Counted from the stretch's first letter, positions 10,472-29,644 are shown. The stretch: 50,655 bases of DNA from Vicingaceae bacterium (GCA_029251425.1 JAQXDJ010000072.1:1-50655), one strand, 5' to 3'. The notes: generated from the letters alone by a model not told the origin. Made by a program: numbers and translations.

Positions 10472-12208
10472 TTGAAAAAACTTCTATTCATATTACTCTT
10501 TAGTCCACTACTTGTTATTGGACAATCAAATTACGACTCTCTATTTGTAGAATACTCCAATTCCAAAACTGATACTGGCAAAATGGAACTCGCCTATAAA
10601 TTGGGTGTACATTTTCATTACTTAAACTTAGACTCTGCTCAACACTATTTTGGTAGTATGTTGGCGATAGCCCAAAAAAAAGGAGATTTAAAAAAGGAAT
10701 CGCTTGCCATGTCGAGTTTAGGAATTATTGATTTGGGTAGAGGAGACTTTGAAATGGCCTTGAAAAAAAATTTAAAAAGCCTTGAAATTAGTAGTGGTAT
10801 TAATGATGCTTATGGAGTTGCACGTGCAAATATAAACTTAGGTATTGCAAATATGAATATGGGGCGATATCAAACTTCAATGGGGTATTTTATACAGTCT
10901 GTGAAAATTACAGAAGCTAAACTTTCAAAAAACCCAGAGAATGAAGCCGATTTACTCAGTTTGTCTCGAAGTTATGGTAACATAGGAAACCTGCATGCTT
11001 ATTTAGGAGAAAATGGTTCGGGAGAAGCCTCTAGAGTCGAATATGAAAAAGCCATTGCAATTTTAAAAAAATCTATACCATTAAAAGACAAATTAATTTC
11101 ATCAACTGACCCATCCATGCAATCTGCAGGAGGAAAAGACAAAAGCATCACCTATTCCAATCTTGGTGAGATATATTATTTGTTGCAAGAATATGATAGT
11201 GCGATGAAATATACAGATGCAGCTATGGCGTTGTATAAGGAATTTGATTATCCAACAGGAATCCCTTTTTGTTTATCTAATCTTGGGAAAATAAATGCAG
11301 CAAAAGAGTATTACGGGAAAAGTATAGCCAATTTTAAGGAGGCAATAGAGACATTTGATAAGTTAGGGTTTTCAGCCCAGTTAGGAGAGTCATATGGATC
11401 TCTTGCAAGTGTTTATAGGGATTATGCAAATACCGAAACAACAACTAAAAACAATAAAACTACCTACTTAAAAGAAGCTTTGTTTTTTGGTTTAAAAGGC
11501 TACGCACTATCAATTGAAAATACCTCAGTTTCTACACAAAAAAATATCGCATTAACTTTAAAAGAAATATATGAGATTCTCGGAAATGAAAAAGAAGCTT
11601 TAAAATTCGCCAATATTTACATGGCTGTAAACGACAGTTTATTTTCTAATAATAAAATACGCGCGCTAGAAGATCTAGAGGCAAAATATCAAAACGAGCT
11701 AAACCAAAGTAAACTAGAAAGGCAAACTTTAGAACTCGAAAAAAAGGCATTAATTATTGCAAAAAAAGAAAAAGAAAACATGTTATGGATATGTGCTTTT
11801 ATTGCAATTTTATTATTGGCAGCTATTGTTGTTAGACAAAAATATGCAAAAAGTATTCAAGAAAGAGAAGCTCATATAAATGAAATAAACTTACTTAAAC
11901 AAAGGGTAATGGCTAAAATAATTGCCGAAAAAAGAGCTATAAATGAAGATAGCTTGATTATGCTTGATAAAGCCAAAATTGAAGCTACCATAGATGGAAA
12001 TTTAAATGAAACCGATTGGAAAATTCTAAACTTATGTTATCAAAACCCTGTAATTTCTAATAAAGAGCTGGCAGATCAAGTTTTACGAAGTTTAGATGGA
12101 ACCAGCTCTTCGCTACGAAAAATGTATCGACTATTTGATATACAAGGTGTGAAAAATAAAAAAGTAGCTCTTGTAATGCTCGCCACTAAAATTTCAAATG
12201 ACATATAG
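10472..12208 (+). CDS. Transmembrane one-component regulator: periplasmic TPR array, coiled coil, TM helix, cytoplasmic LuxR/GerE-like HTH
   Basis: 578 aa with a TTG start. Signal peptide, repeated TPR-like units (LGIIDLGRGDFEMAL, LGIANMNMGRYQTSM, LGEIYYLLQEYDSAM, and others). TM helix MLWICAFIAILLLAAIVV. C-terminal WKILNLCYQNPVISNKELADQV...KMYRLFDIQGVKNKKVALVMLA resembles LuxR-type HTH. Confidence 0.6.
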   Translation: MKKLLFILLFSPLLVIGQSNYDSLFVEYSNSKTDTGKMELAYKLGVHFHYLNLDSAQHYFGSMLAIAQKKGDLKKESLAMSSLGIIDLGRGDFEMALKKNLKSLEISSGINDAYGVARANINLGIANMNMGRYQTSMGYFIQSVKITEAKLSKNPENEADLLSLSRSYGNIGNLHAYLGENGSGEASRVEYEKAIAILKKSIPLKDKLISSTDPSMQSAGGKDKSITYSNLGEIYYLLQEYDSAMKYTDAAMALYKEFDYPTGIPFCLSNLGKINAAKEYYGKSIANFKEAIETFDKLGFSAQLGESYGSLASVYRDYANTETTTKNNKTTYLKEALFFGLKGYALSIENTSVSTQKNIALTLKEIYEILGNEKEALKFANIYMAVNDSLFSNNKIRALEDLEAKYQNELNQSKLERQTLELEKKALIIAKKEKENMLWICAFIAILLLAAIVVRQKYAKSIQEREAHINEINLLKQRVMAKIIAEKRAINEDSLIMLDKAKIEATIDGNLNETDWKILNLCYQNPVISNKELADQVLRSLDGTSSSLRKMYRLFDIQGVKNKKVALVMLATKISNDI

Positions 12209-12264
12209 ATTAAGATAATTTTATTCGCAGTTAAACAAGCACATTTTATTCATACTTCCCTAAT

Positions 12265-12290
12265 AGAGCTAATTAAACAGCTCTTTTTTT
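12265..12290 (+). terminator. Rho-independent terminator after the TPR regulator
   Basis: AGAGCT (12265-12270) / AGCTCT (12279-12284) stem followed by a T-run. Confidence 0.55.
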
Positions 12291-12455
12291 GTCTGTTAGA
12301 ATTACAACAGCAACACATAACAATCACACCGTCAGTGGTTTAGTCGTTTTTAGTTTTCACGCCTAGGCGAAAAAAATGTAGAATCACAACTAGGAGTGGT
12401 ACATAATAGAGTTATTGATATCATATTTGTGTTCATAAGGTAATCACTAAAAAAA

Positions 12456-13667
12456 ATGAACATGAAATCAATACTCATAATCGCAATTTCATTTAGTAGC
12501 ATATTTTCATTTGGACAAACAAACTTAATACCTAATCCTGGTTTTGATAATTTTGCATCCTGTCCTACTAACATACATCAAGCTTATTTGCTAGATGATT
12601 GGTTTTATGTGCCTAGCCATTTTGGCACACCAGATTTATATGCAACATGCGGGGCAGCTGTAGTGAGCGTCCCAACTCATACAACTGGAACTCAGAACCC
12701 CCGAAGCGGAACTGCTTATGCTGGGCTTGTGGTCTACCCAAGCTCGTCTAGTCCTAACTACCGAGAATATTTACAAGTAAAGTTAACCTCTCCATTGGTT
12801 GCGGGTGAATCCTATGATGTATCGGCATGGGTTAACTTGAGAGATAATATCCTTAAAACATGTGATGGCTTTGGTTTTCATTTAACGACCTCAATAATTT
12901 CGAACGGTTCCACCTCTAGTGCATTTTCAATTTCTCCTTCTTTAGATAATACGACAACGATAGATAATCAAGCAGACTGGGTTCAAATTGGTGGGGTTTA
13001 TATTGCAACTGGGGGTGAAGAATACCTAACTATTGGTAATTTTAGGGATGACGCCAATACCAATCATAACTTTTTCTTTGGCTCGTCATATATATTTGTA
13101 GAAGATGTTTCTGTTGCTCTTGCTACTCCGCTGCCTGTAAAGTTAACTTATTTTGATGCGAATTGTCAAAATGACAATCCCAAACTATCTTGGGTAACTA
13201 GTTCTGAAATTAACAACGATTATTTTACGATTGAAAAAAGTGATGATGCAGTTAACTTTGAAGCTATAGCAACTGTAGAAGGGAATGGAAACAGTAGTAT
13301 TATAAATAACTACACTTGGACAGATGACTCTCCAATTAATGGAACAATATATTACCGTTTAAAACAAACAGACTTTAATGGAGCTTTTGAATACCTCGGA
13401 ATAAGAACTGTTACTTGTGAGCAAGCTACCGATATTAGTATTTATCCTAATCCGTTTGAAAACAGTTTTACCGTTCAGCTTTCAGACAACACCACTTACC
13501 CAATTACAATAGAAGTAATAGATTACTTGGGGAGAAAAGTGTATGAACAACAAGTGGAGACTACGATTACTGAAATTGAGTTAAACAATCTTCCGGCAGG
13601 AACTTATTTTATCAGAACATTTAACGAAACAACTCAAGTAGTTGAACGAATTGTTAAAACAAAGTAA
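12456..13667 (+). CDS. Secreted protein with T9SS type A C-terminal sorting domain
   Basis: 403 aa. Signal peptide and an N-terminal NLIPNPGFDNFASCP jelly-roll-like domain. Middle LTYFDA...LSWVTSSEINNDYFTIEKSDD...YYRLKQTDFNG module. C-terminal ISIYPNPFENSFTVQ...LPAGTYFIRTFN matches the Por secretion tail. Confidence 0.8.
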   Translation: MNMKSILIIAISFSSIFSFGQTNLIPNPGFDNFASCPTNIHQAYLLDDWFYVPSHFGTPDLYATCGAAVVSVPTHTTGTQNPRSGTAYAGLVVYPSSSSPNYREYLQVKLTSPLVAGESYDVSAWVNLRDNILKTCDGFGFHLTTSIISNGSTSSAFSISPSLDNTTTIDNQADWVQIGGVYIATGGEEYLTIGNFRDDANTNHNFFFGSSYIFVEDVSVALATPLPVKLTYFDANCQNDNPKLSWVTSSEINNDYFTIEKSDDAVNFEAIATVEGNGNSSIINNYTWTDDSPINGTIYYRLKQTDFNGAFEYLGIRTVTCEQATDISIYPNPFENSFTVQLSDNTTYPITIEVIDYLGRKVYEQQVETTITEIELNNLPAGTYFIRTFNETTQVVERIVKTK

Positions 13668-16811: not shown

Positions 16812-17867
16812 TCACCTAAAGGAAGCTCTTTGGAGTGCTTTATTTTGATGAATATATCGAATAGAAAACTCTATTCCGTTTGCTCCACCCGCTGATTTAG
16901 CCAAATCTGAATTGCTATAATCATAAGAAAATCCAATCATGTAATCTGTAAATTCCAAATAGATTTCAGGTATAATTGCATCTCCAACTCTGTAGTGTGC
17001 GCCAAAATAAATTGCAGCCTCTTTAAACATTCCTGAATATTTAGTTTCATGTCCTCTCCTAAATTTCAATAACATTCCTGGAGTAATCTCTTTTGAACTT
17101 GCCTGTGTTGCGTAAAAAACAGAAGGAACAAGAGATAATGGCACAAGCCCTAAGTCAAAAGTTCCAGAAAACTGCGCAACAATTTTCATAGGTAAATTAT
17201 CGGTTGTAAAAGCCAAAAATTCCTGAGCTGGTTCATTTAAATGATAACCTGCTACACCGACATTAAAGCTAGAAACATCTGAACTTAAAAATGATGTACC
17301 TTCAGTTTTAAATTCGTAAAAAACACCTGCTCCTAAATCTAAATATTGTGATGATCTTAACCCGTAAAGTTCGTTTGTTGCTAGCTGTGTATCAAATGCT
17401 AAACCATTATATTGATTACCCCAAGTTAAGGAACTTAAATTAACTGAATTTTGCCCTAATCCTGTTTGAATTCCTAAAGAAAATTTGTGTTGTTCCGAAA
17501 TTGGTAAAATTCCTGACACAGAAATACTTGTTTGTGAAGACCCAAAGTTTGAAGTGCCTGCCACATCATTATAAAAGTTCAACCCTAGCCCTAAATAAGC
17601 TCCTTGATTCCTTCTTCTTCCTTTCTTAAATCTAAGTGGCGCATCAAACGAAGCTGCATAAGTTCTAAAACCTTTACCTATTCCTGTCCATTGTGTTCTG
17701 TAGTTTAAAAATGCTCTAACATTACCTTCAAAAACACCGGTAGCTGCTGGATTAATTAATTGGGGGGTTTGTCCAAATTGAGAAAAATGAACATCTTGAG
17801 CAACTACTTTCATTGAAATAAATCCAACAAAAAGTAATACACTTCCTATTAATTTTATCTCTCGCAT
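16812..17867 (-). CDS. PorP/SprF family type IX secretion system membrane protein
   Basis: 351 aa. Signal peptide then the QDVHFSQFGQTPQLINPAATG signature of PorP/SprF, with a beta-barrel-like alternating pattern. Its start codon overlaps the upstream stop (TAATG). Confidence 0.85.
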   Translation of the reverse strand: MREIKLIGSVLLFVGFISMKVVAQDVHFSQFGQTPQLINPAATGVFEGNVRAFLNYRTQWTGIGKGFRTYAASFDAPLRFKKGRRRNQGAYLGLGLNFYNDVAGTSNFGSSQTSISVSGILPISEQHKFSLGIQTGLGQNSVNLSSLTWGNQYNGLAFDTQLATNELYGLRSSQYLDLGAGVFYEFKTEGTSFLSSDVSSFNVGVAGYHLNEPAQEFLAFTTDNLPMKIVAQFSGTFDLGLVPLSLVPSVFYATQASSKEITPGMLLKFRRGHETKYSGMFKEAAIYFGAHYRVGDAIIPEIYLEFTDYMIGFSYDYSNSDLAKSAGGANGIEFSIRYIHQNKALQRASFR

Positions 17868-20800
17868 TACCTCACTAAAGTTATGTCTCCTGATTTAGAT
17901 TCTGATTCTCCATCAATAAATTCAGCTCTAAGTTTATACATATAAATTCCAGAAACAGCTTTTTTTCCATTATAATTTCCATCCCAACCATTGTCTTTTG
18001 ATGAAGTTGAAAAAACACGTTCTCCCCAACGATTATAAATATCAAAAATTAGAGAGACTATATTGTTCCCATAGACTAATAATACATCATTAGCTCCATC
18101 TTCATTTGGTGAGAAAGCTTCAGGAACTCCTGCAAAATTTGGTATTTCTGGAACATAATTAGCCGTAATAACATCATCAAATGAAGCAACAAAACTTACG
18201 CTAGAGTTTGTATTAGATGGGGTTAATACATGATTGTTTGAAGTCCAATTCTCAAATAAGAAATCACTAATTGGAGTTTCCGTTAAATCGACTGTAGTTC
18301 CTGTTATGTATTTTTTTATAACAGATGTTGTTGTGAAACTATCATAAACAGAATTTGTATCTATATCAATTCTCCCCATAGTTATTGGGCTTACTCTAAA
18401 TTCAATATCAAAAGAATCTATTGGGAGAAAGTGTGCCACAATTGAATCAGCATCATCTATCAACACCTGTACTGTTGGACTATTAGCATTAACAATAAAA
18501 GCAGTATTGTTTGATGACCAATTACTAAACAAATACCCTGATTGTGGTGTCGCAACTAAATCAAGCACAGTGTTCTCTATAACATTTTCTGTATGACTAT
18601 ATGCAGCAGGAGTAACTCCATCTATAGAAATATTTCCACCAACAACTGGGTCAACATTAAATACTACAGCAAAAGTATCAATCTTCTCAAAATGAGCAAT
18701 AATCGTATCTGCAACACCTACTGTAATTGTTACAACAGAATCATTCGGACTAGGAGAAAAAGCAGTGTTATTTGAAGACCAATTTAAAAAAATATGTCCT
18801 GGTTTTGGAACTGGTATTAGTGTTTGCAAACTCGTATTAGGGTAAAACTGAGAATGACTATATACTGTTGGTGTAAACCCATTTATTGAAACATCTCCTC
18901 CCAAAACAGGATCAACATCATAAGTCATTTCAATTGTATCTCCAGACAATACATAATGAGCGACTACACTATCGGTTTGAGTAATCATTAACGAATTACT
19001 CGGGTTAGTAATAGCTGAATCCATCGCATGGTTAAATACTTCCCAATGATCAAATATAAAACCAGGGTTCTCTGATGCAGTAACTAAAATAGAAACCCCT
19101 CCAAAATAATTGCCTGAATAGGAATAGTTTGTTGGTGTTATAGAATTTACCTGTATATCTCCCGCTCCAACAGGAGTAACATTAACCTGCATTGGATAAG
19201 GTCCAGTTAAATTATAACAAGGTCCTAAGCCAGAACTCACACCGGCACATCTAGCATTAATAAAATTCCTCATATCTTGAACATTCTGTTGCCACTGAGT
19301 CATTGTACCTCCCCACCTTGCTATTTGACCAGGCATTTCGGGCGTAATGATATTTACTAAACTATCTAATACAGCAATCATGTTACCACACTCAAAAGTT
19401 GTATTAGAAAGATCAATATATCTAGAAATATAATATTGTTCAAAAACAGGATTATTCATTAAAGCATTTAAAATAACGGTATGACCTTGCCCGCCTGGAT
19501 TTGGCAAATTATCGATATTACATGGATCAGCATTCGGTGATGAACTTGGAATACCTGTATAATTAGTGTAATGATTAAATGTAGCATCCATATCCCATAA
19601 TGAATACCTCCATTTCAACTTACTCCCATTTGTATCTAAACCTCTCCACCAAGAAGTATTCCAGCTCAACATATCCTGATTTAGAATGTATGAGTTCAAC
19701 ACAAAATAATCTACTAAACTTTTCCATTTATATTGACTAGTGACATAGTTAAAGTTAGCTGGTATAGCCATATTATTAGTTTGAATGTAATTTAACAAAG
19801 CATTCCAATCATTTTGAGCATTAGGCGCTCCGTACTTTTGCCAAGTACCACCCCATGTTTTTAAATATTGTATATAATTGGGACTATCTGCAAATTGTTC
19901 ATCCTGTCCATAATAATAATCAAGAAAATCACTATCATCAACTTTTTCCCTTATTTCATAAACCCCCCAATACAATCCATTCATATACAAAATACATGAC
20001 TGATAAGTCCTTTCATCAAGATGTAAATCTCCGTTTTGAGATAATGCCTGCACATAAGGATCTCTAATATGTGCCCCACCAAGTTCCCCAGCATAATTAG
20101 CTCCAGGTGTTCCTTCGAAAGGATAATTATCGCTGGCTCCAGCTTTAAGAATAATTCTTTGAAACTTATCTCTAGTTTTATTTGCAAACAGTTGGTGCTT
20201 TAGAGCATAATTATACCCATACTGATCTTTCATAATAAAATCAACCCCTCTCTGAGGGTAAGCCCACGAGTCATTTCCGTGTTTATCATAATTCCCTGCG
20301 CCTTCAGTTTGCATTACTCCATTCTCATCAAAATATTCAATTGCGCCAGGAAAAGCATCAGTAAACGCATTCGGGTGTGTATCATTTATCAATCCAGATA
20401 TATCATTCCCACAAATAGAAACTACAGGAATACTATGTGAAGAATTTATAAAGTAAGTATTCGTCTCAATAAAGCTAGCAGGGATACTAGTTATGGAGCT
20501 AAAACACCTTGCCCTCAGTACGGTGGTCGCTGCAATATTAATTGGTGTCGAATATACAGGTGATGTGTTATTTGGTTCGGTTCCATCTACCGTATATCTA
20601 ATCGTAATATTTGGATCTGGTGATGAAATTGTTACAGACTGAGTCGAAGCATAAAAGCCAGCTGCAACATTAAAACTAGGGACAGTAGCATACTCTTGTT
20701 GAGCACCTAAATTAGCACTATTTGGAGTTGCGTTGGTAAAAACACTCCATGTTGAAGCACCATTAGTAGTTCTACCTCTCGAATGTAAATGTTGGTTTGG

Positions 20801-21211
20801 AATAATTGTTAAACTATCCAAAACATTAACACCTGCATCAGATAATATTATTTTCTCGTAACGTGTTTGTGTCCACTTAAAGTTAGTATGTATTTGATTT
20901 CCGGCAGCTACAATTCCTCTACCCGAACCAAACACCATTATATAACCACCAGCCGGTATAACTACACTACTTGGAATTTGAAATTTTGTTGGGTTTCCAC
21001 TTTTATCACTTATATAATATCCGTTTAAGTCTATTGCTCCAGTTGTTGTATTATAAAGCTCTACCCAATCTTCGCGTTCACCAAAAGAATCAGAAAAACC
21101 GGCAGCAGTAGAATTAGCACAAGAATATTCATTTATAACAACTTGAGCATCTACATCTTGAATAAACAAAGCAAGTAAAACACTTAAAAAACCCTTATAA
21201 AATCTGCCCAT
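17867..21211 (-). CDS. Large surface protein: lamin-tail domain (LTD) + chitobiase-C-like Ig + CotH kinase-family domain + 4 repeat modules + T9SS type B sorting domain
   Basis: 1114 aa. LTD motif VVINEYS...DWVELYNTTTGAIDLNGYYISD. The CotH-like core spans roughly aa 260-650. C-terminal AFSPNEDGANDVL...IYNRWGERVF...GWDGNYNGKKAVSGIYMYKL matches the gliding-motility/CHU_C type B CTD. Confidence 0.85.
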   Translation of the reverse strand: MGRFYKGFLSVLLALFIQDVDAQVVINEYSCANSTAAGFSDSFGEREDWVELYNTTTGAIDLNGYYISDKSGNPTKFQIPSSVVIPAGGYIMVFGSGRGIVAAGNQIHTNFKWTQTRYEKIILSDAGVNVLDSLTIIPNQHLHSRGRTTNGASTWSVFTNATPNSANLGAQQEYATVPSFNVAAGFYASTQSVTISSPDPNITIRYTVDGTEPNNTSPVYSTPINIAATTVLRARCFSSITSIPASFIETNTYFINSSHSIPVVSICGNDISGLINDTHPNAFTDAFPGAIEYFDENGVMQTEGAGNYDKHGNDSWAYPQRGVDFIMKDQYGYNYALKHQLFANKTRDKFQRIILKAGASDNYPFEGTPGANYAGELGGAHIRDPYVQALSQNGDLHLDERTYQSCILYMNGLYWGVYEIREKVDDSDFLDYYYGQDEQFADSPNYIQYLKTWGGTWQKYGAPNAQNDWNALLNYIQTNNMAIPANFNYVTSQYKWKSLVDYFVLNSYILNQDMLSWNTSWWRGLDTNGSKLKWRYSLWDMDATFNHYTNYTGIPSSSPNADPCNIDNLPNPGGQGHTVILNALMNNPVFEQYYISRYIDLSNTTFECGNMIAVLDSLVNIITPEMPGQIARWGGTMTQWQQNVQDMRNFINARCAGVSSGLGPCYNLTGPYPMQVNVTPVGAGDIQVNSITPTNYSYSGNYFGGVSILVTASENPGFIFDHWEVFNHAMDSAITNPSNSLMITQTDSVVAHYVLSGDTIEMTYDVDPVLGGDVSINGFTPTVYSHSQFYPNTSLQTLIPVPKPGHIFLNWSSNNTAFSPSPNDSVVTITVGVADTIIAHFEKIDTFAVVFNVDPVVGGNISIDGVTPAAYSHTENVIENTVLDLVATPQSGYLFSNWSSNNTAFIVNANSPTVQVLIDDADSIVAHFLPIDSFDIEFRVSPITMGRIDIDTNSVYDSFTTTSVIKKYITGTTVDLTETPISDFLFENWTSNNHVLTPSNTNSSVSFVASFDDVITANYVPEIPNFAGVPEAFSPNEDGANDVLLVYGNNIVSLIFDIYNRWGERVFSTSSKDNGWDGNYNGKKAVSGIYMYKLRAEFIDGESESKSGDITLVR
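18152..19198 (-). repeat. Four tandem ~85-90-aa domain repeats inside the CotH protein
   Basis: Each unit ends in a similar module: GFIFDHWEV...DSVVAHYV, GHIFLNWSSNNTAFSPSPNDSVVTITVGVADTIIAHF, GYLFSNWSSNNTAFIVNANSPTVQVLIDDADSIVAHF, DFLFENWTSNNHVLTPSNTNSSVSFVASFDDVITANYV (aa ~672-1020). Confidence 0.6.
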
Positions 21212-22696: not shown

Positions 22697-23719
22697 ATGG
22701 CAAAAGTTAGAGGTAACCTTTACATATTTTTAGTGCTCTTCAGCATTTCTTTTTCAGCATTTGGAAATGATAAAGAAGATGGTAAAACTTCTAACAAAGA
22801 TACTTTATCAGCCTTAGTGATTACTCCAAAAAATCCACTTTATAATAATATTTCAGATTTATCTGGGAATGAAATCATGCAACTTATTGATTCTATTTTA
22901 GAATTAGACGAAATTCCAAAAGGGTTGTTAAACGGGATTAATGATTATGCTGAAAGTAAACTTTTAGAGCATGATTATTATATTTCGCTCACCAATTATT
23001 ATGAAAATTCTGCAATTCCTTCCAACTCAACTTACGGAAAATGGGATACGAAAAGAGTTTCTCCCTATAGTGAAGATATTACAAAAAATGACACTTCATT
23101 AATTTTAACACTTACCGACACACAAAATAATTGCAATTTTGTAGCTCCCATTCAAGACCCTGTTATCACCTCTAATTTTGGATGGAGAAATGGGCGAAAT
23201 CATCATGGCATGGATTTAGACCTTCAGGTTTGGGATCCTGTTGTAGCTTCATTTGATGGTATGGTAAGAATTGCTCTCTTTCATCCTGGCTATGGAAGAG
23301 TTGTAATAATAAGACACTATAATGGTTTAGAAACTTTATACGCGCATTTACATCGATTTAAAGTTAAAACCGGAGATATTGTAGAGGCAGGTCAAGTCAT
23401 TGGACTTGGTGGCAGCTCTGGACAATCATCTGGGAGTCATTTACATTATGAAGTTAGATACAAAGGGAAACCCTTAAACCCAAAACACATTATTTCTTTT
23501 AAAGAAAATGCCCTAATTAGTGACTCTTTAAAGTTAGTTAAACACAAATGGAACTACTCAGCACTACCAATGGGGATAGAATATCATACCATACAAAAAG
23601 GTGACTTTATGTATAAAATTGCTGATACATATGGGATTACTGTTAACGAACTTTGTGAAATAAATGGTATAAGGCGAAACAAAACATTAATTGTTGGCCG
23701 AAAATTAAGAGTTAAGTAA
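22697..23719 (+). CDS. M23 family metallopeptidase with C-terminal LysM domain
   Basis: 340 aa. HHGMDL and GSHLHYEV zinc/catalytic motifs. LysM segment YHTIQKGDFMYKIADTYGITVNELCEINGI. Confidence 0.9.
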   Translation: MAKVRGNLYIFLVLFSISFSAFGNDKEDGKTSNKDTLSALVITPKNPLYNNISDLSGNEIMQLIDSILELDEIPKGLLNGINDYAESKLLEHDYYISLTNYYENSAIPSNSTYGKWDTKRVSPYSEDITKNDTSLILTLTDTQNNCNFVAPIQDPVITSNFGWRNGRNHHGMDLDLQVWDPVVASFDGMVRIALFHPGYGRVVIIRHYNGLETLYAHLHRFKVKTGDIVEAGQVIGLGGSSGQSSGSHLHYEVRYKGKPLNPKHIISFKENALISDSLKLVKHKWNYSALPMGIEYHTIQKGDFMYKIADTYGITVNELCEINGIRRNKTLIVGRKLRVK

Positions 23720-24048
23720 TGCTAAACATCCTCAACTATTCTGATCATCCAACTAGAGTTGGCTATACCGTTTATCGTTTTTTTGAAAAAGAACGAGCAG
23801 ACTATTTTGAAGAATTATTAATAAAAGAGAACGTTTCTTTTGAGTCTTCAATTGAAGAAAGTGGAAACACATTATATTTATTTGGAATTAAAAAAGGTGA
23901 TGCAAAAAAAGCAATGAACGCAAACTACTTGGTTAGTGCAAAATTCAGAAACAAAATAATTCCTAACACTTACTTTCGATGGGGAGTCATTCTTTTTGCA
24001 ATTACAATGATAACTATAGCAGTTATAGGAGCTATTCTTAAAACCTAA
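23719..24048 (+). CDS. Hypothetical tail-anchored membrane protein, translationally coupled to the M23 peptidase gene
   Basis: 109 aa. TAATG stop/start overlap with the upstream gene. Single C-terminal helix WGVILFAITMITIAVIGAIL. Confidence 0.5.
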   Translation: MLNILNYSDHPTRVGYTVYRFFEKERADYFEELLIKENVSFESSIEESGNTLYLFGIKKGDAKKAMNANYLVSAKFRNKIIPNTYFRWGVILFAITMITIAVIGAILKT

Positions 24049-25501
24049 ATCCTAAAGTGAAAGAAATATAATGATCTTTTAAATCTACTGTTGCAAATTC
24101 ACCCTGATCAGCAACTACTGAAGATTCTGCTTTAGAAAACCTTTGCAGATAAGACATATCAAAATAATAGTCTTCCTGCTTTATTCCAAATCCAACAGAG
24201 TATGTTGATGAACTATTATCTACATCAAAATTATTTTTTAACGGATCTCCTTGGTAGCGATAACCTGCTCTTAGTCTAAAAGGGTCCAACCTCCACTCTG
24301 TTCCTACTCTAATATTATGAGTTGATCTAAAATTATTTCGGATACTTCGATTTTCTACAGAAAAATCTGTAGTACCAAAAGCATTGTCTTCTGTTATTCT
24401 TGCCGTAGAATAATCTACAATTTCATAATCTCCATTTACAACACCATGGCTTCCAACAATAACAGCCGCGCTAGTTATAAAACGATAAGGTGTAGTAACC
24501 ATATACTCAAAATTACCTGACGGAGAAATTTCAGTAAGCACTTCTCCCGTTTTATCTTCAGAACTAACCGTTGTTGACCATTGATCCGATAATGAATATA
24601 CTGTTGGAGTATGAAAAGCAGTTCCTAACCTAAACCAGTCAGCAACTTTATAAATCATACCTAGTTTTAAATTCAACCCTGCTCCTGTGGTTTTCACGTA
24701 ATCATTAACCGAAAATGATTTAAACTCAGTAAGTGTATCAGAAGGGTCTGATGTTTCCGTGTAACTCCTATCAAAAACATATCTTACAGATGGCACGCCA
24801 ATCGAAGCCCCCAAATACAGCTTATCTGAATAATTAGAACCTAAAGCAAAATACATCTCTCCAGAGCCACCTCTAGTGTCATAACTTGTAGTTTGAGTAA
24901 TATTATTTGAGTTCTCAAAAACATGATTATACTGTAAAGATCCCGAATCTATAGGGTTTACTATATAAGTTTGATAAGCCAAATTTGATGAGAAAGGAAA
25001 TTCATAAGGGATGTCTTCTTCATATATACCACCGCTAGCATTCAATTCCAAGGTAAATGTATTTAACATAGAGTTATTCGTATTACTCTTTATAGAAATA
25101 CTAGTATTATAATTACTCAACCTATTATATCCTACAGCAAGATTTACCGCTTTCCAATCACCACTCCCTTTAAAATTTCCTGCAATACCAACATTTGAAA
25201 AATGAAAATTTAGCTTACCATCACTAACACTATTTCCATTTTTATTACTTTCTGAATAATTATAATGAAACGCTGGTGTAAACGAAAAATCTGAACTTTT
25301 GTAAACCCCTAGTCCTCCAGGATTAGTACTTATTGCAGATAAGTTTGCACCAAGCGCCCCAAAGGAACCTCCCATTGCGTTAAACCTTGCATCACCATAA
25401 TGATCAAGCTGAGAATACCTCAACACATCAAACTCATCTTGAGCAAACCCTTCGTTTGCAACAAAAACAATTCCCAAAACAAATAATAGTAAATACTTCA
25501 T
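24038..25501 (-). CDS. Outer-membrane beta-barrel protein, FadL/Toluene_X/PorV-like (family assignment tentative)
   Basis: 487 aa. Signal peptide MKYLLLFVLGIVFVANEGFAQ, N-terminal RYSQLDHYGDARFNAMGGSFGALGAN segment, amphipathic beta-strand pattern throughout, and a C-terminal ISFTLGFRF aromatic beta-signal. Confidence 0.6.
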   Translation of the reverse strand: MKYLLLFVLGIVFVANEGFAQDEFDVLRYSQLDHYGDARFNAMGGSFGALGANLSAISTNPGGLGVYKSSDFSFTPAFHYNYSESNKNGNSVSDGKLNFHFSNVGIAGNFKGSGDWKAVNLAVGYNRLSNYNTSISIKSNTNNSMLNTFTLELNASGGIYEEDIPYEFPFSSNLAYQTYIVNPIDSGSLQYNHVFENSNNITQTTSYDTRGGSGEMYFALGSNYSDKLYLGASIGVPSVRYVFDRSYTETSDPSDTLTEFKSFSVNDYVKTTGAGLNLKLGMIYKVADWFRLGTAFHTPTVYSLSDQWSTTVSSEDKTGEVLTEISPSGNFEYMVTTPYRFITSAAVIVGSHGVVNGDYEIVDYSTARITEDNAFGTTDFSVENRSIRNNFRSTHNIRVGTEWRLDPFRLRAGYRYQGDPLKNNFDVDNSSSTYSVGFGIKQEDYYFDMSYLQRFSKAESSVVADQGEFATVDLKDHYISFTLGFRF

Positions 25502-25523
25502 CTTTTCTTTTGCTTTTAATTAT

Positions 25524-26933
25524 CTATCGTCTTCTCCCTCCAGATGAAGATCTACTTCCGCTACTTCTTGATCCGCTACTTGGCCTACTCGTAGGTCTGC
25601 TAGCAGGACGAGTTCTTGTTGAGCTATTGCTCCTATTATAACTTCCACTAGGTCGGCTATAATTAGAACGTGTATTACTTTTTGGTTTAGTATAAGTGCT
25701 CTTCGGACGAGTAGTTGCTGTTCTTGTTCTAGAGTTATTATACGTGCTCCTTGGTTTTGTTGTTGAACTTGGCCTTGTAGTCGGGCGAGTTGTTCTAGTT
25801 GTAGTCGTTTTTGGACGAGTATAAGAATTTGTACGAGTAGTCCTAGTCGATTTTGTTGGATAAGAATTACTTCTAGTAGTTCTTGTTGGACTAGTACTCC
25901 CATTTGTTGTTCTAGTATTAGGGTATGTACTCCTTGTTGTAGGCCTAACTCCTCCAGTCCTAGTTGTATTTCTAGGATTAGAATACCCATTATTTCGAGT
26001 CGTTTCTCTTACCCCACCACTTCTAGTTGTATTTCTAGTGTTTGAATATCCTGAATTTCTAGTAGATCTTACCCCTCCGGTTCTTGTTGTACCATTAGAA
26101 TTATGATTTCTTACAGCCGCTTCATATTTCTGACCAAAAGATTTATGACCGCTAGTACTTTTTCTTCCTCCTCTAGTTCCATAACCTGAATAACTTGAAC
26201 TACGTCCTCTCTTACCATAATAATAACTATTTCTATCACGACTATTATAATAATTAGAAGCATATACATTCTGATTACCATAACCACCAAACCCATTTTG
26301 ATAATAAGCAGAAACATGGTTTCCATATACTCCGTGGTATCCAAAATTATAACCAGTTCCACAATAACCATAGTTCCCTGTATAGCCCCAGCCCCAATTC
26401 CATCCTAAAGACCACCCTCCATAATAAGACCATCCTATATTCCACCCTGAATAGTTTGGTCTCCACCAGTTGTAACTGGTATAAATACTTGTACCATAGT
26501 TGTAAGGGTTCTGATCATACCAATAATAGTTAGTATAACAATCATCATAATATCCAGCATTTACAGTTCCCCTTCTAAATCTTTTTATTCTTGAAGCGTA
26601 TTCATAATCATAATATTCGTTTTCGTAATCATAATTATCTCCATTATAATAGTTGTTTGTAATCTGAACATTTCCAAACTCATCTTCATAATAAGTAGTA
26701 CTATCTGATATACCCATTCTATTATTATATTCGGCTTCTTTCTCCTTTGCCCTACTATCTCTATAATAATCTGTTGCTGTAGAATACTCATCTTCAGACA
26801 AAACCTCCTCAGAAGTTCTATCAATTTCAAAATTTTTCTTTTTTGATGATGGATAAAAATCATCTTGTGCAGTAATATTTCCTGCAAGCCCTAAAAAGGC
26901 AATAAATAGTGTTATCTGGTTAATTCGTTTCAT
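25524..26933 (-). CDS. Secreted extreme low-complexity protein: acidic Tyr-rich head, aromatic/Gly/Asn core, basic Thr/Arg/Ser/Pro tail
   Basis: 469 aa. Signal peptide MKRINQITLFIAFLGLAGNITAQ and a strong SD (AAGGAGG) 7 nt upstream. This is the longest frame and the only one with a start context. Shorter ORFs in other frames are composition shadows. Confidence 0.7.
   Translation of the reverse strand: MKRINQITLFIAFLGLAGNITAQDDFYPSSKKKNFEIDRTSEEVLSEDEYSTATDYYRDSRAKEKEAEYNNRMGISDSTTYYEDEFGNVQITNNYYNGDNYDYENEYYDYEYASRIKRFRRGTVNAGYYDDCYTNYYWYDQNPYNYGTSIYTSYNWWRPNYSGWNIGWSYYGGWSLGWNWGWGYTGNYGYCGTGYNFGYHGVYGNHVSAYYQNGFGGYGNQNVYASNYYNSRDRNSYYYGKRGRSSSYSGYGTRGGRKSTSGHKSFGQKYEAAVRNHNSNGTTRTGGVRSTRNSGYSNTRNTTRSGGVRETTRNNGYSNPRNTTRTGGVRPTTRSTYPNTRTTNGSTSPTRTTRSNSYPTKSTRTTRTNSYTRPKTTTTRTTRPTTRPSSTTKPRSTYNNSRTRTATTRPKSTYTKPKSNTRSNYSRPSGSYNRSNSSTRTRPASRPTSRPSSGSRSSGSRSSSGGRRR
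25905..26087 (-). repeat. Three tandem 60-63-nt (20-21-aa) repeats inside the low-complexity gene
   Basis: Protein units are TRTGGVRSTRNSGYSNTRNT / TRSGGVRETTRNNGYSNPRNT / TRTGGVRPTTRSTYPNTRTT. On the plus strand the core CTAGTTGTATTTCTAG recurs exactly 63 nt apart (25960 and 26023), with a diverged third copy near 26083. More degenerate T/R/S/P periodicity continues to the stop. Confidence 0.65.
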
Positions 26934-26940
26934 AATATAT

Positions 26941-26947
26941 CCTCCTT
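26941..26947 (-). promoter_or_regulatory. Canonical Shine-Dalgarno sequence for the low-complexity gene
   Basis: The minus strand reads AAGGAGG-ATATATT-ATG (7-nt spacer). No comparable SD precedes any other start codon I inspected in this window. Confidence 0.55.
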
Positions 26948-26983
26948 AATTTTCTTTGTTAATGAAATGTTAAAAGTCATCTT

Positions 26984-27013
26984 CATATTTAAACATCCAA
27001 TTACTGTGCCAAA
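26984..27013 (-). promoter_or_regulatory. Near-consensus Bacteroidota promoter for the low-complexity gene
   Basis: The minus strand reads TTTG (27013-27010), an 18-nt spacer, then TAAATATG (26991-26984). That is one mismatch to TAnnTTTG. It lies in the 94-nt gap after the upstream small gene. Confidence 0.35.
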
Positions 27014-27027
27014 ATCACAACCCTACA

Positions 27028-27384
27028 TTAATGCCAAAAAGCAGCAATTAAAAACATTGTGTTTACAAACACATCTACTACTAATTCTGCTGTACCAGAA
27101 TTCCAAAAAACATTTCTCTTTCTGTTTTGGGAAATTGGCTCTTCATTATAAACTTCATCTCCATAATGAGTATTAAAATCGGTTGGCTCATTTAATTCCC
27201 TTATTTCATTTAAACGATTATAATCTTCTTCTGTTAGGTAGGTTTCAACAATAACACTATCAGCTTTAGAGAACTTTCTTTCCTTTTTTAAATTATCTTT
27301 TTCAAAATCAGATTGAGAAAAAACTTGACCAGCCGAAAAAAGAAGGAAAAGAAAGGGGAGTAAATATATTTTAATAGATTTCAT
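27028..27384 (-). CDS. Small secreted/anchored hypothetical protein
   Basis: 118 aa. Signal peptide IYLLPFLFLLFSAGQVFSQ, acidic Tyr-containing middle (TEEDYNRLNE...HYGDEVYNEEP) and C-terminal hydrophobic helix ELVVDVFVNTMFLIAAFW. Confidence 0.5.
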   Translation of the reverse strand: MKSIKIYLLPFLFLLFSAGQVFSQSDFEKDNLKKERKFSKADSVIVETYLTEEDYNRLNEIRELNEPTDFNTHYGDEVYNEEPISQNRKRNVFWNSGTAELVVDVFVNTMFLIAAFWH

Positions 27385-27401
27385 GTTACCTTAGTTTTAA
27401 T

Positions 27402-27409
27402 TAAATTTG
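27402..27409 (+). promoter_or_regulatory. Candidate -7 promoter box for proS
   Basis: TAAATTTG is an exact TAnnTTTG match, 62 nt upstream of the proS ATG. The -33 position reads TTTC rather than TTTG. Confidence 0.35.
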
Positions 27410-27471
27410 CTTTCTTAAAATTATTGATTCTTTGCTTTTAATCAAGCAATAATTATACCTAAAAAACGAAA

Positions 27472-28950
27472 ATGGCTAAAAATTTCACATCAAGAGAAAA
27501 AGATTACTCACAATGGTACAATGAATTAGTTGTAAAAGCTGATTTAGCAGATCATTCAGCAGTAAGAGGTTGTATGGTAATTAAACCTTATGGCTATGCT
27601 AGTTGGGAAAAAATGCAAGCACAACTAGATAAAATGTTTAAGGAAACAGGTCATCAAAATGCTTACTTCCCTTTGTTTGTTCCGAAAAGCTTGTTTGAAG
27701 CAGAAGAAAAAAATGCAGAAGGTTTTGCCAAAGAATGTGCTGTAGTTACACATTACAGATTAAAAACCGACCCTGAAAACCCTGCAAAATTAATTGTTGA
27801 TCCAAATGCTAAATTAGAAGAAGAACTAATTGTTAGACCAACATCTGAAGCAATTATTTGGAACACTTACAAAGGATGGATTCAATCATACAGAGATTTA
27901 CCAATACTGGTTAACCAATGGGCAAATGTTGTTAGATGGGAAATGAGAACTCGTTTATTTTTAAGAACAGCAGAGTTTTTATGGCAAGAAGGGCATACAG
28001 CACACGCTACGAAAACTGAAGCAATTGAAGAGACCGAAAAAATGCTAGATGTTTATGCTGAATTTGCAGAAACATATATGGCTATGCCTGTTCTAAAAGG
28101 AATTAAAACTGCAAGCGAAAGATTTGCTGGAGCTGACGAAACTTATTGTATTGAAGCTTTAATGCAAGACGGGAAAGCACTACAGGCAGGAACCTCGCAC
28201 TTTTTAGGACAAAATTTTGCCAAAGCTTTTGATGTAAAATATGCCACTAAAGAAGGTAAACAAGAACATGTTTGGGCAACTTCTTGGGGAGTTTCTACCA
28301 GGTTAATGGGTGGTTTAATAATGACTCACTCTGATGATGATGGTTTGGTGCTACCTCCAAACTTAGCTCCTATACAAGTTGCTATTGTTCCTATTTATAA
28401 AGGAGAAGAACAATTGGCTCAAATCTCTGAACAAGTTGCTGTTATAAAAACTGAACTAGAAGCTAAAGGAATTTCTGTGAAGTATGATGATAGAGATACA
28501 CACAAACCAGGATTTAAATTTGCTGAATACGAATTTAAAGGTGTTCCTGTTAGATTGGCTATCGGACCAAGAGACATGGAAAACGGCACTATTGAAGTCG
28601 CAAGAAGGGATACTAAAGAAAAAGAAATTTTACAGCAACAAGATATTGCAGGGAAGATTGAACATTTATTAGAAAATATTCAAAACAATTTATTTCAAAA
28701 AGCAATAGATTTTAGAGAAGATCTAACTAATAAAGCTGATAATTGGGAAGAATTTAAAAACCTTATTGAAAATAAAACTGGATTTGTTGAAGCACACTGG
28801 GACGGAACTGCTGAAACAGAAGAGAAAATTAAGCAAGAAACTAAAGCTACGATCCGTTGTATTCCTCTAAACAATAAATTGGAAGAAGGAAAATGTGTTT
28901 ATTCAGGAAATCCATCTACACAACGCGTAGTTTTTGCCAAATCATACTAA
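27472..28950 (+). CDS. proS: Proline--tRNA ligase (archaeal/eukaryote-like class II type)
   Basis: 492 aa. N-terminal [14 protein letters not shown], class II motifs ([26 protein letters not shown]), a C-terminal zinc-binding-type domain, and it ends ...FAKSY. Confidence 0.95.
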
Positions 28951-28960
28951 CACACTTATT

Positions 28961-29644
28961 ATGGAAAATGCTAAAGATCTAATTATAGAAACGCTAAAAA
29001 CAAAAGCTTCTCTAAAGCAAGATGTTTTTAAGAAAACAAGAGACGTTTTTAAACTTTTTAAGATAGAAGCCGAAAAACTTGTAGAAGAGCTTAAAACTGA
29101 AATGGAACAAATTGATGAAAGAGTTATCATTGATTTTAGAGATAAAGGTGACTACGAGTTTCATATAAAATTTGGTGGAGATATTTTAGTTTTCTTTATG
29201 CATACTAATGTTTTTGATTTTGACAAAAACCACCCTATCTGGAAAACATCCTATTTAAAAGAGGATGAATTAAAAGCTTATTGCGGTTTAATTAACGTTT
29301 ACAATTTCTTAGCAGATTCATTCAAGTACAACCGATTAAACGACCTTGGCTATTTAGTTGCCAGATTCTTTCTAAACAAAGAAGACCATTACTTTGTTGA
29401 AGGAAAAAGACAGCTTGGTTTTTTATATAATGACTTTATAAATGAAACAATTAACAACGATAAAATCAGAAATATTATAGAATCTTCAATGTTATATTCT
29501 ATGGATTTTGATTTACTAACGCCAAGTTACGAAACCATGCAAAACGTTAGTGTACATGAAGTTAACGAAGTAACAAGTGCTATGAGTATAAAAACAGGCA
29601 AACGACTTGGATTTAAATTTGAAGCAGATAATGATATTATATAA
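28961..29644 (+). CDS. Conserved hypothetical protein
   Basis: The track ORF starts at 28934 and overlaps the proS end. The MENAKDL start at 28961 avoids that overlap. It is a soluble, helical-looking protein and I recognise no family. Confidence 0.5.
   Translation: MENAKDLIIETLKTKASLKQDVFKKTRDVFKLFKIEAEKLVEELKTEMEQIDERVIIDFRDKGDYEFHIKFGGDILVFFMHTNVFDFDKNHPIWKTSYLKEDELKAYCGLINVYNFLADSFKYNRLNDLGYLVARFFLNKEDHYFVEGKRQLGFLYNDFINETINNDKIRNIIESSMLYSMDFDLLTPSYETMQNVSVHEVNEVTSAMSIKTGKRLGFKFEADNDII

Follow-up and report, generated by a model that had tools for sequence, protein, structure and literature searches.

We examined a stretch of 50,655 nucleotides of DNA from Vicingaceae bacterium (GCA_029251425.1, JAQXDJ010000072.1:1-50655), referred to below as the window, in which three successive genes on the minus strand encode putative envelope proteins. 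According to the open reading frame (ORF) calls, these are a gene for a 118-aa protein (27384-27028), a gene for a 469-aa low-complexity (LC) protein (26933-25524) and a gene for a 487-aa outer-membrane barrel (25501-24038). The first two are separated by 94 nt and the last two by 22 nt. On one side, the 118-aa gene is divergent from proS, which encodes proline--tRNA ligase (27472-28950, plus strand; TIGR00408, 541 bits), and proS and the three genes have in common the 87-nt intergenic region between them (27385-27471). On the other side, the 3' end of the barrel gene overlaps by 11 nt that of a convergent 109-aa ORF (23719-24048, plus strand). The nearest database relatives of the window are Vicingaceae (order Flavobacteriales). 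An earlier reading of the same DNA, made from the sequence alone (the sequence-only reading), had given this three-gene layout, and its coordinates, gaps and overlap are all exact. It had also proposed that the barrel exports or anchors the LC protein at the cell surface. We find that the LC gene and the barrel gene form a two-gene module conserved across the phylum, and we tentatively assign the LC protein to the periplasmic face of the outer membrane.

Conservation of the pair across Bacteroidota

Loci were sampled at one genome per GTDB species, taking the best 80 of 342 relatives, and a locus was counted as informative if both proS and the barrel gene were present. This gave 75 informative loci, 74 of them recognized by script and one (L063) by eye. 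The order proS, then divergently the LC gene and the barrel gene, is found in 75/75, and in each of them proS and the barrel gene enclose one large ORF of 359-638 aa, on the strand of the barrel gene. The median gap between the LC gene and the barrel gene is 37.5 nt and that between the start of proS and the first gene is 95.5 nt; proS itself is 68-90% identical throughout. The taxa covered are Flavobacteriales, Bacteroidales, Marinilabiliales, Lentimicrobiaceae and Weeksellaceae, and include a Chryseobacterium and the isolate Acidiluteibacter ferrifornacis. A further homologue search with a Bacteroidales barrel, meant to reach named model organisms, returned only metagenome-assembled genomes. 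As an internal control for the decay of synteny we used the neighbours on the far side of the barrel gene, an M23/LysM peptidase gene and the 109-aa ORF, which are retained only within Vicingaceae. The pair of barrel and LC genes is therefore far from a chance arrangement and constitutes a phylum-wide two-gene module. The sequence-only reading had taken the genes to form a module and had named missing co-conservation as the finding that would speak against it; the two genes are adjacent in every informative locus. We found no evidence for a functional part of proS in the module and treat it as conserved context.

Counterparts in Flavobacterium johnsoniae appear in a study of TamL (PMC12045153), in the supplement of which Fjoh_4939 (proline--tRNA ligase), Fjoh_4940 and Fjoh_4941 are adjacent. 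Fjoh_4940 is described there as a signal peptidase II (SPII) 'periplasm-facing lipoprotein' with no domain and no assigned function, and Fjoh_4941 as a signal peptidase I (SPI) integral beta-barrel of the OMPP1/FadL/TodX family (Toluene_X). Because the gene order is the same as in the window, with an SPII lipoprotein followed by an SPI Toluene_X barrel beside proS, we presume that Fjoh_4940 and Fjoh_4941 are orthologous to the LC protein and the barrel, respectively. They differ in that Fjoh_4940 is a lipoprotein whereas the LC protein of the window has lost the lipid anchor. In outer-membrane fractions the mean peptide numbers were 46 for Fjoh_4940 and 19 for Fjoh_4941, compared to 45 for BamG; depletion of TamL raised Fjoh_4940 2.6-fold and Fjoh_4941 5.6-fold, and in vesicles Fjoh_4941 dropped to 0.4-fold (PMC12045153). 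The authors of that study remarked that the proximity of the two genes 'might indicate a functional link', and read Fjoh_4941 as a FadL homologue induced by disturbed outer-membrane lipid homeostasis (PMC12045153). No other paper mentioning Fjoh_4940 or Fjoh_4941 was found, and this passing remark was all that we found in the literature on a characterized combination of a disordered lipoprotein and a FadL-like barrel.

The barrel and its low-complexity partner

The 487-aa barrel protein has a signal peptide, the mature N-terminus QDEFDVLRYS and a C-terminal TLGFRF, the signal peptide and terminus being as the sequence-only reading had stated. Against Pfam Toluene_X (PF03349) it scores 29.9 bits, a borderline match just above the gathering score of 29.7; its orthologues from other orders score 22-25 bits, under the cut-off, and many of its database relatives carry a precomputed PF03349 hit. 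The score against PorV_fam (NF033709) is 30.5 bits with a cut-off of 90, and only residues 381-455 are covered. An AlphaFold2 model built on an alignment of 15 relatives, with a mean predicted local distance difference test score (pLDDT) of 74, is a long-stranded beta-barrel. In a Foldseek search of the PDB the model matched best the BamG structures 9hiv_F (Bacteroides thetaiotaomicron, E 8e-18), 9n2d_B (F. johnsoniae) and 9hjm_F (Porphyromonas gingivalis), followed by Escherichia coli FadL, TodX and CymD. Altogether 26 FadL/TodX/CymD/BamG chains were matched at E values of 1e-8 to 8e-18, with template modelling (TM) scores of 0.5-0.66, or 0.54-0.66 when taken over the target, and identities of 9-14%; no PorV structure is among them, and the matches beyond these are unrelated barrels at TM scores of about 0.2. 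As modelled, the barrel has a FadL fold. The sequence-only reading had judged it FadL/Toluene_X/PorV-like and had called for a Foldseek search of this kind; the FadL/Toluene_X part of that judgement is upheld by the Pfam score and the structural matches, and the PorV part is not.

At the level of sequence, a profile of the 15-member barrel family retrieved zero PDB chains even at E<=1 (no BamG, no PorV and no FadL), and the N-terminal segment alone gave no PDB match. An exhaustive search of 1.84 billion representative proteins, counted as clusters at 50% identity, found 2885 representative clusters at E<=1e-30, nearly all of them full length and of 470-520 aa. The large family to which the barrel belongs is distinct from BamG, from PorV and from canonical FadL. 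Two specific identities were considered and rejected. For BamG or BamG2, the family profile finds no PDB chain, and the loci in F. johnsoniae are distinct, BamG being Fjoh_1412, BamG2/BamH2 being Fjoh_1686/1685 and the proS-linked pair being Fjoh_4940/4941. For PorF (PG0534), nothing in the literature spoke in favour.

Conservation in the barrel is highest at residues 21-66 (25304-25441, minus strand), comprising the mature N-terminus and a putative hatch segment (QDEFDVLRYS...GDARFNAMGGSFGALG...STNPGG). Conservation was scored in ten-residue blocks over 68 orthologues of 34-78% identity; blocks 21-30 and 41-50 score 0.90 and 0.88, compared to 0.4-0.7 elsewhere, and the invariant columns of the protein cluster in residues 21-66. 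In the family the conserved N-terminus takes the form QDEFDxLRYS followed by AMGGxFGALG...NPG. The latter segment presumably corresponds to the hatch of FadL, and we take its longer form, GxARxxAMGG...NPG, to resemble that hatch together with its NPA motif. In FadL-fold barrels the hatch segment plugs the lumen, unlike the situation in the secretion channels CsgG and FapF.

The LC protein has a signal peptide cleaved before Q, the mature N-terminus QDDFY and, in this lineage, no lipobox. Its composition is strongly biased (T 14, S 13, Y 12, R 11, G 10 and N 10%). Neither this protein nor its Bacteroidales and Flavobacteriales orthologues have a relative in Pfam, NCBIfam or the PDB, and it does not match Pfam BamH; every homologue in the databases is named 'hypothetical protein'. 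The family is undescribed. The sequence-only reading had described the protein as almost entirely low complexity, which is right as to composition; it is nevertheless not featureless, as two sequence blocks are conserved phylum-wide. The common architecture consists of the signal peptide, a DDxY(Y) motif, an acidic Tyr-containing stretch, an aromatic core and a basic tail.

In the window the DDFY motif and the acidic Tyr-containing segment occupy residues 23-92 (26658-26867, minus strand), with a net charge of -9. Nearly all orthologues have the DDxY motif near the N-terminus, either immediately following SPI cleavage or, counted from the lipid Cys, about 10-15 residues on. The conserved aromatic core follows at residues 93-262 (26148-26657, minus strand; Y 22%, G 17%, N 13%, W 5%). 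Its sequence in the window reads YYDYEYASRIKRF...GYYDDCYTNYYWY..NPY.YGTSIY..YNWW, then a G/W/N/Y-rich stretch and then YYNSRDRNSYYYGKRG. The corresponding form in the phylum is YYDYEYASRIRRF..GYYDxYYTNxYWYxYNPYxYGxSIY..YxWW, followed by a Gly/Trp/Asn/Tyr-rich stretch of variable length and ending in YYNSYDxNSxYYGxRG, often with FGxKYE. The same blocks are found in Bacteroidales and Flavobacteriales orthologues, and twelve columns are invariant in 40 sequences (Y112, R118, F119, Y128, Y133, T134, N135, Y139, G147, N230, S236 and R242). The remainder of the protein, residues 263-469 (25527-26147, minus strand), is a polycationic, disordered tail rich in Thr, Ser, Arg and Pro, with a net charge of +43 and the end SSGGRRR. 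The tails of the orthologues have a median length of 181 aa and a median net charge of +25 (range +15 to +41). They are composed of Ser, Thr, Pro, Asn, Arg and Lys, with about 1% D/E and about 5% hydrophobic residues, and their C-termini are nearly always G-G-R-R-like; composition is conserved in the tail and sequence is not.

No tandem repeats were found in the DNA of the LC gene, and a BLASTP self-comparison found no internal or imperfect repeats in the protein. An AlphaFold2 prediction for the N-terminal 279 residues with 40 homologues has a mean pLDDT of 48, with all of residues 105-262 below 50; the sole element modelled with confidence is a helix at residues 54-73, and neither a beta-solenoid nor any other fold is predicted. 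The core is conserved in sequence but, as far as the model goes, no fold of its own can be predicted for it. The LC gene also contains ORFs of 84-156 aa in alternative frames (25520-25990, 26111-26371 and 26585-26887, minus strand; 25387-25641, plus strand). They are Leu/Ile/Val/Gln-rich nonsense arising from the biased codon composition and not genes, and comparable ones occur in the orthologous loci.

About half of the LC orthologues are lipoproteins, a lipobox Cys being present in about 36. The lipobox is lost in about 38 loci, among them all Vicingaceae, L040, L067 and L077, and in these the DDxY motif stands at the SPI cleavage site after Gln. A Gln at the cleavage position of signal peptidase I fits the Bacteroidetes 'Q-rule'. 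In the window all three proteins are apparently cleaved before Gln, which is followed by acidic and aromatic residues (5' ends at 27319-27384, 26865-26933 and 25439-25501); the contexts are SQ|SDFE in the 118-aa protein (AQ|DDFY in relatives), AQ|DDFY in the LC protein and AQ|DEFD in the barrel. Surface lipoproteins of Bacteroidota follow a rule which needs a minimum of two acidic residues among the six positions after the Cys (PMC12578637). The number of acidic residues at +1 to +6 is 0 in 34/34 scored LC lipoproteins, and the LC protein of the window has no lipobox, so that neither carries the mark of a surface-exposed lipoprotein. Since the lipoprotein forms are without the surface-export signal, we predict a periplasm-facing LC partner. 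That the anchor went missing repeatedly and DDxY did not suggests that contacts with other proteins, and not the lipid, keep the protein in place.

The 118-aa gene (27028-27384, minus strand) is present in 35 Vicingaceae-type loci and absent elsewhere. In its product, a copy of the LC N-terminus is joined first to a basic stretch and then to a hydrophobic helix at the C-terminus. A hidden Markov model (HMM) of the small proteins matches LC proteins over their N-terminal 130 residues, at E values of 1e-10 to 1e-16; pairwise alignments reach 60-95 residues, with the signal peptide supplying part of the score. The LC-like mature start Q[DN][DE][FI]Y is found in 28/35 small proteins and has drifted to QSDFE in the window and its closest relatives. 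The hydrophobic helix ends in FWH or FWQ (FWH in the window). Given the HMM match and the common mature start, the gene is a Vicingaceae-specific truncated duplicate of the 5' part of the LC gene. The signal peptide, acidic Tyr segment and hydrophobic helix noted in the sequence-only reading are all present, but the protein is a copy of the LC N-terminus and not an independent third component. We also considered, and rejected, an origin by splitting from an ancestral LC gene that was longer; the window LC protein can already be aligned with the long forms starting at its own N-terminus.

Neighbouring genes and other features of the window

A Bacteroidota-type -7 box (TAAATTTG) lies at 27402-27409 on the plus strand, 63 nt upstream of proS. 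The -7 motif TAnnTTTG shows no enrichment across the window, and none of the three intergenic gaps has it on the minus strand; sigma-70-type sites in the promoter scan are at chance level, and the terminator scan gave no minus-strand terminator-like site between the module genes. As these scans gave neither a minus-strand terminator nor a -7 motif between the genes, their co-transcription is likely, judging from the sequence.

Convergent with the barrel gene are a gene for a 340-aa M23 peptidase with a C-terminal LysM domain and then that of the 109-aa protein (together 22697-24048, plus strand), the stop codon of the former overlapping the start codon of the latter. The 109-aa protein has a C-terminal hydrophobic segment, and the adjacency of this pair to the barrel gene is kept only within Vicingaceae. 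Directly downstream of proS is a 236-aa ORF (28934-29644, plus strand), whose TTG start would overlap the end of proS and which has no match in Pfam or NCBIfam. It is present at 40-82% identity in most Flavobacteriales-type loci and missing from many Bacteroidales loci. In one Bacteroidales relative (L081, ENA ERZ21831069) the LC gene is split in the calls into two ORFs (334 and 315 aa) that overlap, probably owing to a frameshift in low-complexity sequence. In the same relative a Pfam BamH (PF14092) gene (11670-12980, minus strand) lies about 4 kb downstream of proS, the LC gene and the barrel gene, and its proximity may be coincidental.

The genome makes use of a type IX secretion system (T9SS), as the sequence-only reading had held. 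A protein with Por_Secre_tail, the type-A C-terminal domain, is encoded at 12456-13667. A 1114-aa CotH-kinase-domain protein (17867-21211, minus strand) carries LTD, CHB_HEX_C and InlB B-repeat domains and the type-B CHU_C T9SS signal, and a PorP/SprF barrel gene (16812-17867, minus strand) follows it with an overlap of 1 nt. The latter two are a canonical pair of type-B cargo and anchor barrel. On the LC protein and its orthologues, searches of Pfam and NCBIfam found neither the type-A (Por_Secre_tail/TIGR04183) nor the type-B (CHU_C) domain. The description of the LC protein as one with a signal peptide and without a T9SS C-terminal domain was thus correct.

Proposed role and comparison with known systems

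The reading that we favour, with a confidence falling somewhat short of even, is that the LC protein is docked on the barrel at the periplasmic side of the outer membrane and that its tail contacts anionic envelope material in the service of envelope maintenance. The partner would be fixed to the barrel chiefly through its N-terminal motif and aromatic core, which dock there, with the lipid anchor auxiliary to this, which would explain the several losses of the anchor. The extended, positive tail would reach into the periplasm and touch anionic material such as peptidoglycan or the inner-membrane surface. In this way the complex could serve outer-membrane and envelope maintenance as a tether, a spacer or a stress-responsive scaffold, possibly coupled to a FadL-type passage of a hydrophobic molecule, and it would export no fibre. 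In Vicingaceae, the 118-aa protein would reuse the N-terminal docking segment on a hydrophobic C-terminal helix.

Several points weigh against such a periplasmic tether. Docking through the N-terminal motif is read from conservation only, the topology comes from a sequence rule and the prediction of the TamL authors, and the correspondence to Fjoh_4940/4941 is drawn from gene order and annotation. The LC protein has no peptidoglycan-binding domain, and its basic tail could equally bind lipopolysaccharide (LPS), DNA or polyphosphate. The hatch segment of the barrel has a pLDDT of only 34-44, and the model is unreliable there. Furthermore, that the hatch is kept, NPG motif included, agrees with a genuine small-molecule channel, to which the LC protein could be merely accessory.

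This last point leads to an explanation that we consider unlikely, though not negligible: the barrel would be a FadL-type channel for a fatty acid or a Bacteroidota-specific lipid, and the LC protein a periplasmic accessory that receives, buffers or regulates the cargo. The Toluene_X match, the FadL fold and the retained hatch with its GxARxxAMGG...NPG signature all agree with it, as does the reading of Fjoh_4941 as an induced FadL homologue by the TamL authors, and the aromatic-rich core of the LC protein could bind hydrophobic ligands. However, no genes for fatty-acid (fad, beta-oxidation) or hydrocarbon catabolism were seen adjoining the pair in the 80 loci, a finding that also bears on the sequence-only reading, which had named lipid or hydrocarbon uptake neighbours as a result that would count against it. 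In addition, a disordered partner with a net charge of +15 to +41 is known for no FadL transporter, and the barrel is only 9-11% identical to FadL while its nearest structures are those of the non-transporting BamG.

There is a slim chance that the pair resembles RcsF, with the disordered LC lipoprotein threaded through or alongside the barrel, an exposed part sensing or binding LPS and the rest signalling in the periplasm. A lipoprotein with long charged disordered regions is indeed encoded together with a dedicated barrel, the F. johnsoniae pair is induced by outer-membrane stress, and FadL-fold barrels have a lateral opening, that of BamG being passed by a polypeptide segment. Against this, the LC protein has no folded signalling domain, no signalling genes were seen adjoining the pair, the hatch presumably fills the lumen, and about half of the lineages manage without the lipid anchor.

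The proposal of the sequence-only reading, in which the barrel would bring the LC protein to the surface or anchor it there, to act as a fibre, an adhesive, a functional amyloid or a coat binding polyanions in the manner of curli or Fap, fared poorly and seems to us improbable. It had in its favour the tight co-conservation of the two genes and a Gly/Asn/Tyr/Trp-rich core whose composition is reminiscent of amyloid or prion-like domains. Moreover, FadL-family barrels of Bacteroidota (PorV, SprF, BamG-BamH) hold surface proteins, and an LC protein without a T9SS domain would need another route. Nevertheless, the export signal is missing in 34/34 LC lipoproteins, with 0 acidic residues in each, and the F. 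johnsoniae counterpart is classed as periplasm-facing. The LC protein has neither imperfect repeats nor a predicted beta-solenoid, there is no homology to Csg or Fap proteins, and the putative hatch is the most conserved segment of the barrel. The 14-strand FadL-fold barrels are monomeric and hatch-plugged, and we know of no FadL-fold barrel that secretes a polypeptide.

Least probable is that the pair is an accessory of a known machine, either BamG/BamH-like on BAM (beta-barrel assembly machinery) or a PorV/PorQ-like T9SS shuttle: BamG structures of three species do top the Foldseek list, the barrel N-terminus is very conserved as in BamG, BamG2/BamH2 are also adjacent barrel and lipoprotein genes and L081 has a Pfam BamH gene about 4 kb away from the pair, but BamG, PorV and FadL are all missing from what the family profile retrieves in the PDB at E<=1, the barrel and BamG are 13-14% identical, F. 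johnsoniae has a separate BamG (Fjoh_1412) and BamG2/BamH2 (Fjoh_1686/1685), the LC protein does not match Pfam BamH, the PorV_fam score is 30.5 with a cut-off of 90, and the F. johnsoniae BAM paper names no such subunit in its main text and does not have the tags Fjoh_4940/4941 in its supplementary files.

The outer membrane of Bacteroidota is built unlike that of E. coli, and its BAM with BamG and BamH, its TamL and its LolB-like proteins were defined only in 2025-2026. The barrel/LC pair is a good candidate for an unrecognized core component of this envelope. It has hallmarks of such a component: all relatives examined have it next to a housekeeping gene, the barrel family counts thousands of clusters at 50% identity, and the presumptive F. 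johnsoniae orthologues have approximately BamG-like peptide numbers in the outer membrane and respond to outer-membrane stress. The LC protein is unusual among bacterial envelope proteins, being essentially disordered, with a Tyr/Trp/Gly/Asn core and a tail of +15 to +41, and belonging to no described family. The role of the two proteins could reveal how outer membrane and cell wall are connected or spaced, or a new job for FadL-fold barrels. It is a long shot that the LC protein is threaded via the lateral opening of the barrel, as is the N-tail of BamG, or passes alongside, so that its tail or core decorates the surface of essentially all Bacteroidota. If true, this would be a new route of polypeptide exposure, independent of the T9SS and of the lipoprotein export pathway, and a phylum-wide surface coat or LPS-binding layer. 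The pair does not clearly contradict current ideas.

Compared to known systems, the pair is like curli (CsgA/CsgG) and Fap (FapC/FapF) in that a low-complexity, Gly/Asn/aromatic-rich protein is encoded beside an outer-membrane protein gene. The two proteins differ from these systems in having no homology to them, as the sequence-only reading had itself cautioned, and the LC protein shows none of the features of functional amyloids such as CsgA and FapC, with no Curlin or Fap hit in Pfam, no imperfect repeats and no predicted beta-solenoid. The modelled barrel also differs from the curli and Fap channels, being presumably a plugged monomer of FadL fold, with a partner predicted to face the periplasm, and for these reasons the analogy is weak. 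With E. coli FadL and Pseudomonas TodX (PF03349) the barrel has in common a borderline Pfam match, a 14-strand-type fold at TM scores of about 0.5-0.6 and an N-terminal hatch-like segment, which in the barrel has the NPG motif. It differs from them by its identity of 9-12%, by having no lipid or hydrocarbon catabolism genes seen adjoining it, and by always being paired with a disordered polycationic protein and with proS.

The best structural match is BamG (Fjoh_1412, Bt4367; PDB 9N2D, 9HIV and 9HJM; E 8e-18 to 4e-14, TM scores 0.53-0.66), which like the barrel is a Bacteroidota-wide FadL-fold barrel with a strongly conserved N-terminus. BamG works with a lipoprotein partner, BamH, and the genes of the paralogous BamG2 and BamH2 are adjacent, as are those of the barrel and the LC protein. 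Yet there is no sequence-level match between the two barrels (13-14% identity; 487 aa compared to 390-406 aa for BamG), and their loci in F. johnsoniae differ. The LC protein, in turn, differs from BamH in being disordered, without a surface-export signal and without a Pfam BamH match. PorV, PorQ and PorP/SprF are FadL-family barrels that serve as protein-binding platforms in Bacteroidota, as we propose for the barrel, and the PorP/SprF gene of the window adjoins the gene of its cargo with a type-B C-terminal domain in the same way as the barrel gene adjoins the LC gene; unlike T9SS cargo, the LC protein has neither a type-A nor a type-B C-terminal domain. Binding of partner proteins by FadL-family barrels (PorV, PorQ, PorP/SprF and BamG-BamH) makes the combination of a FadL-fold barrel with a dedicated partner a known theme in Bacteroidota, and the F. 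johnsoniae pair has been noticed in passing before. Within this theme, the barrel stands for a new and large subfamily within a superfamily already known.

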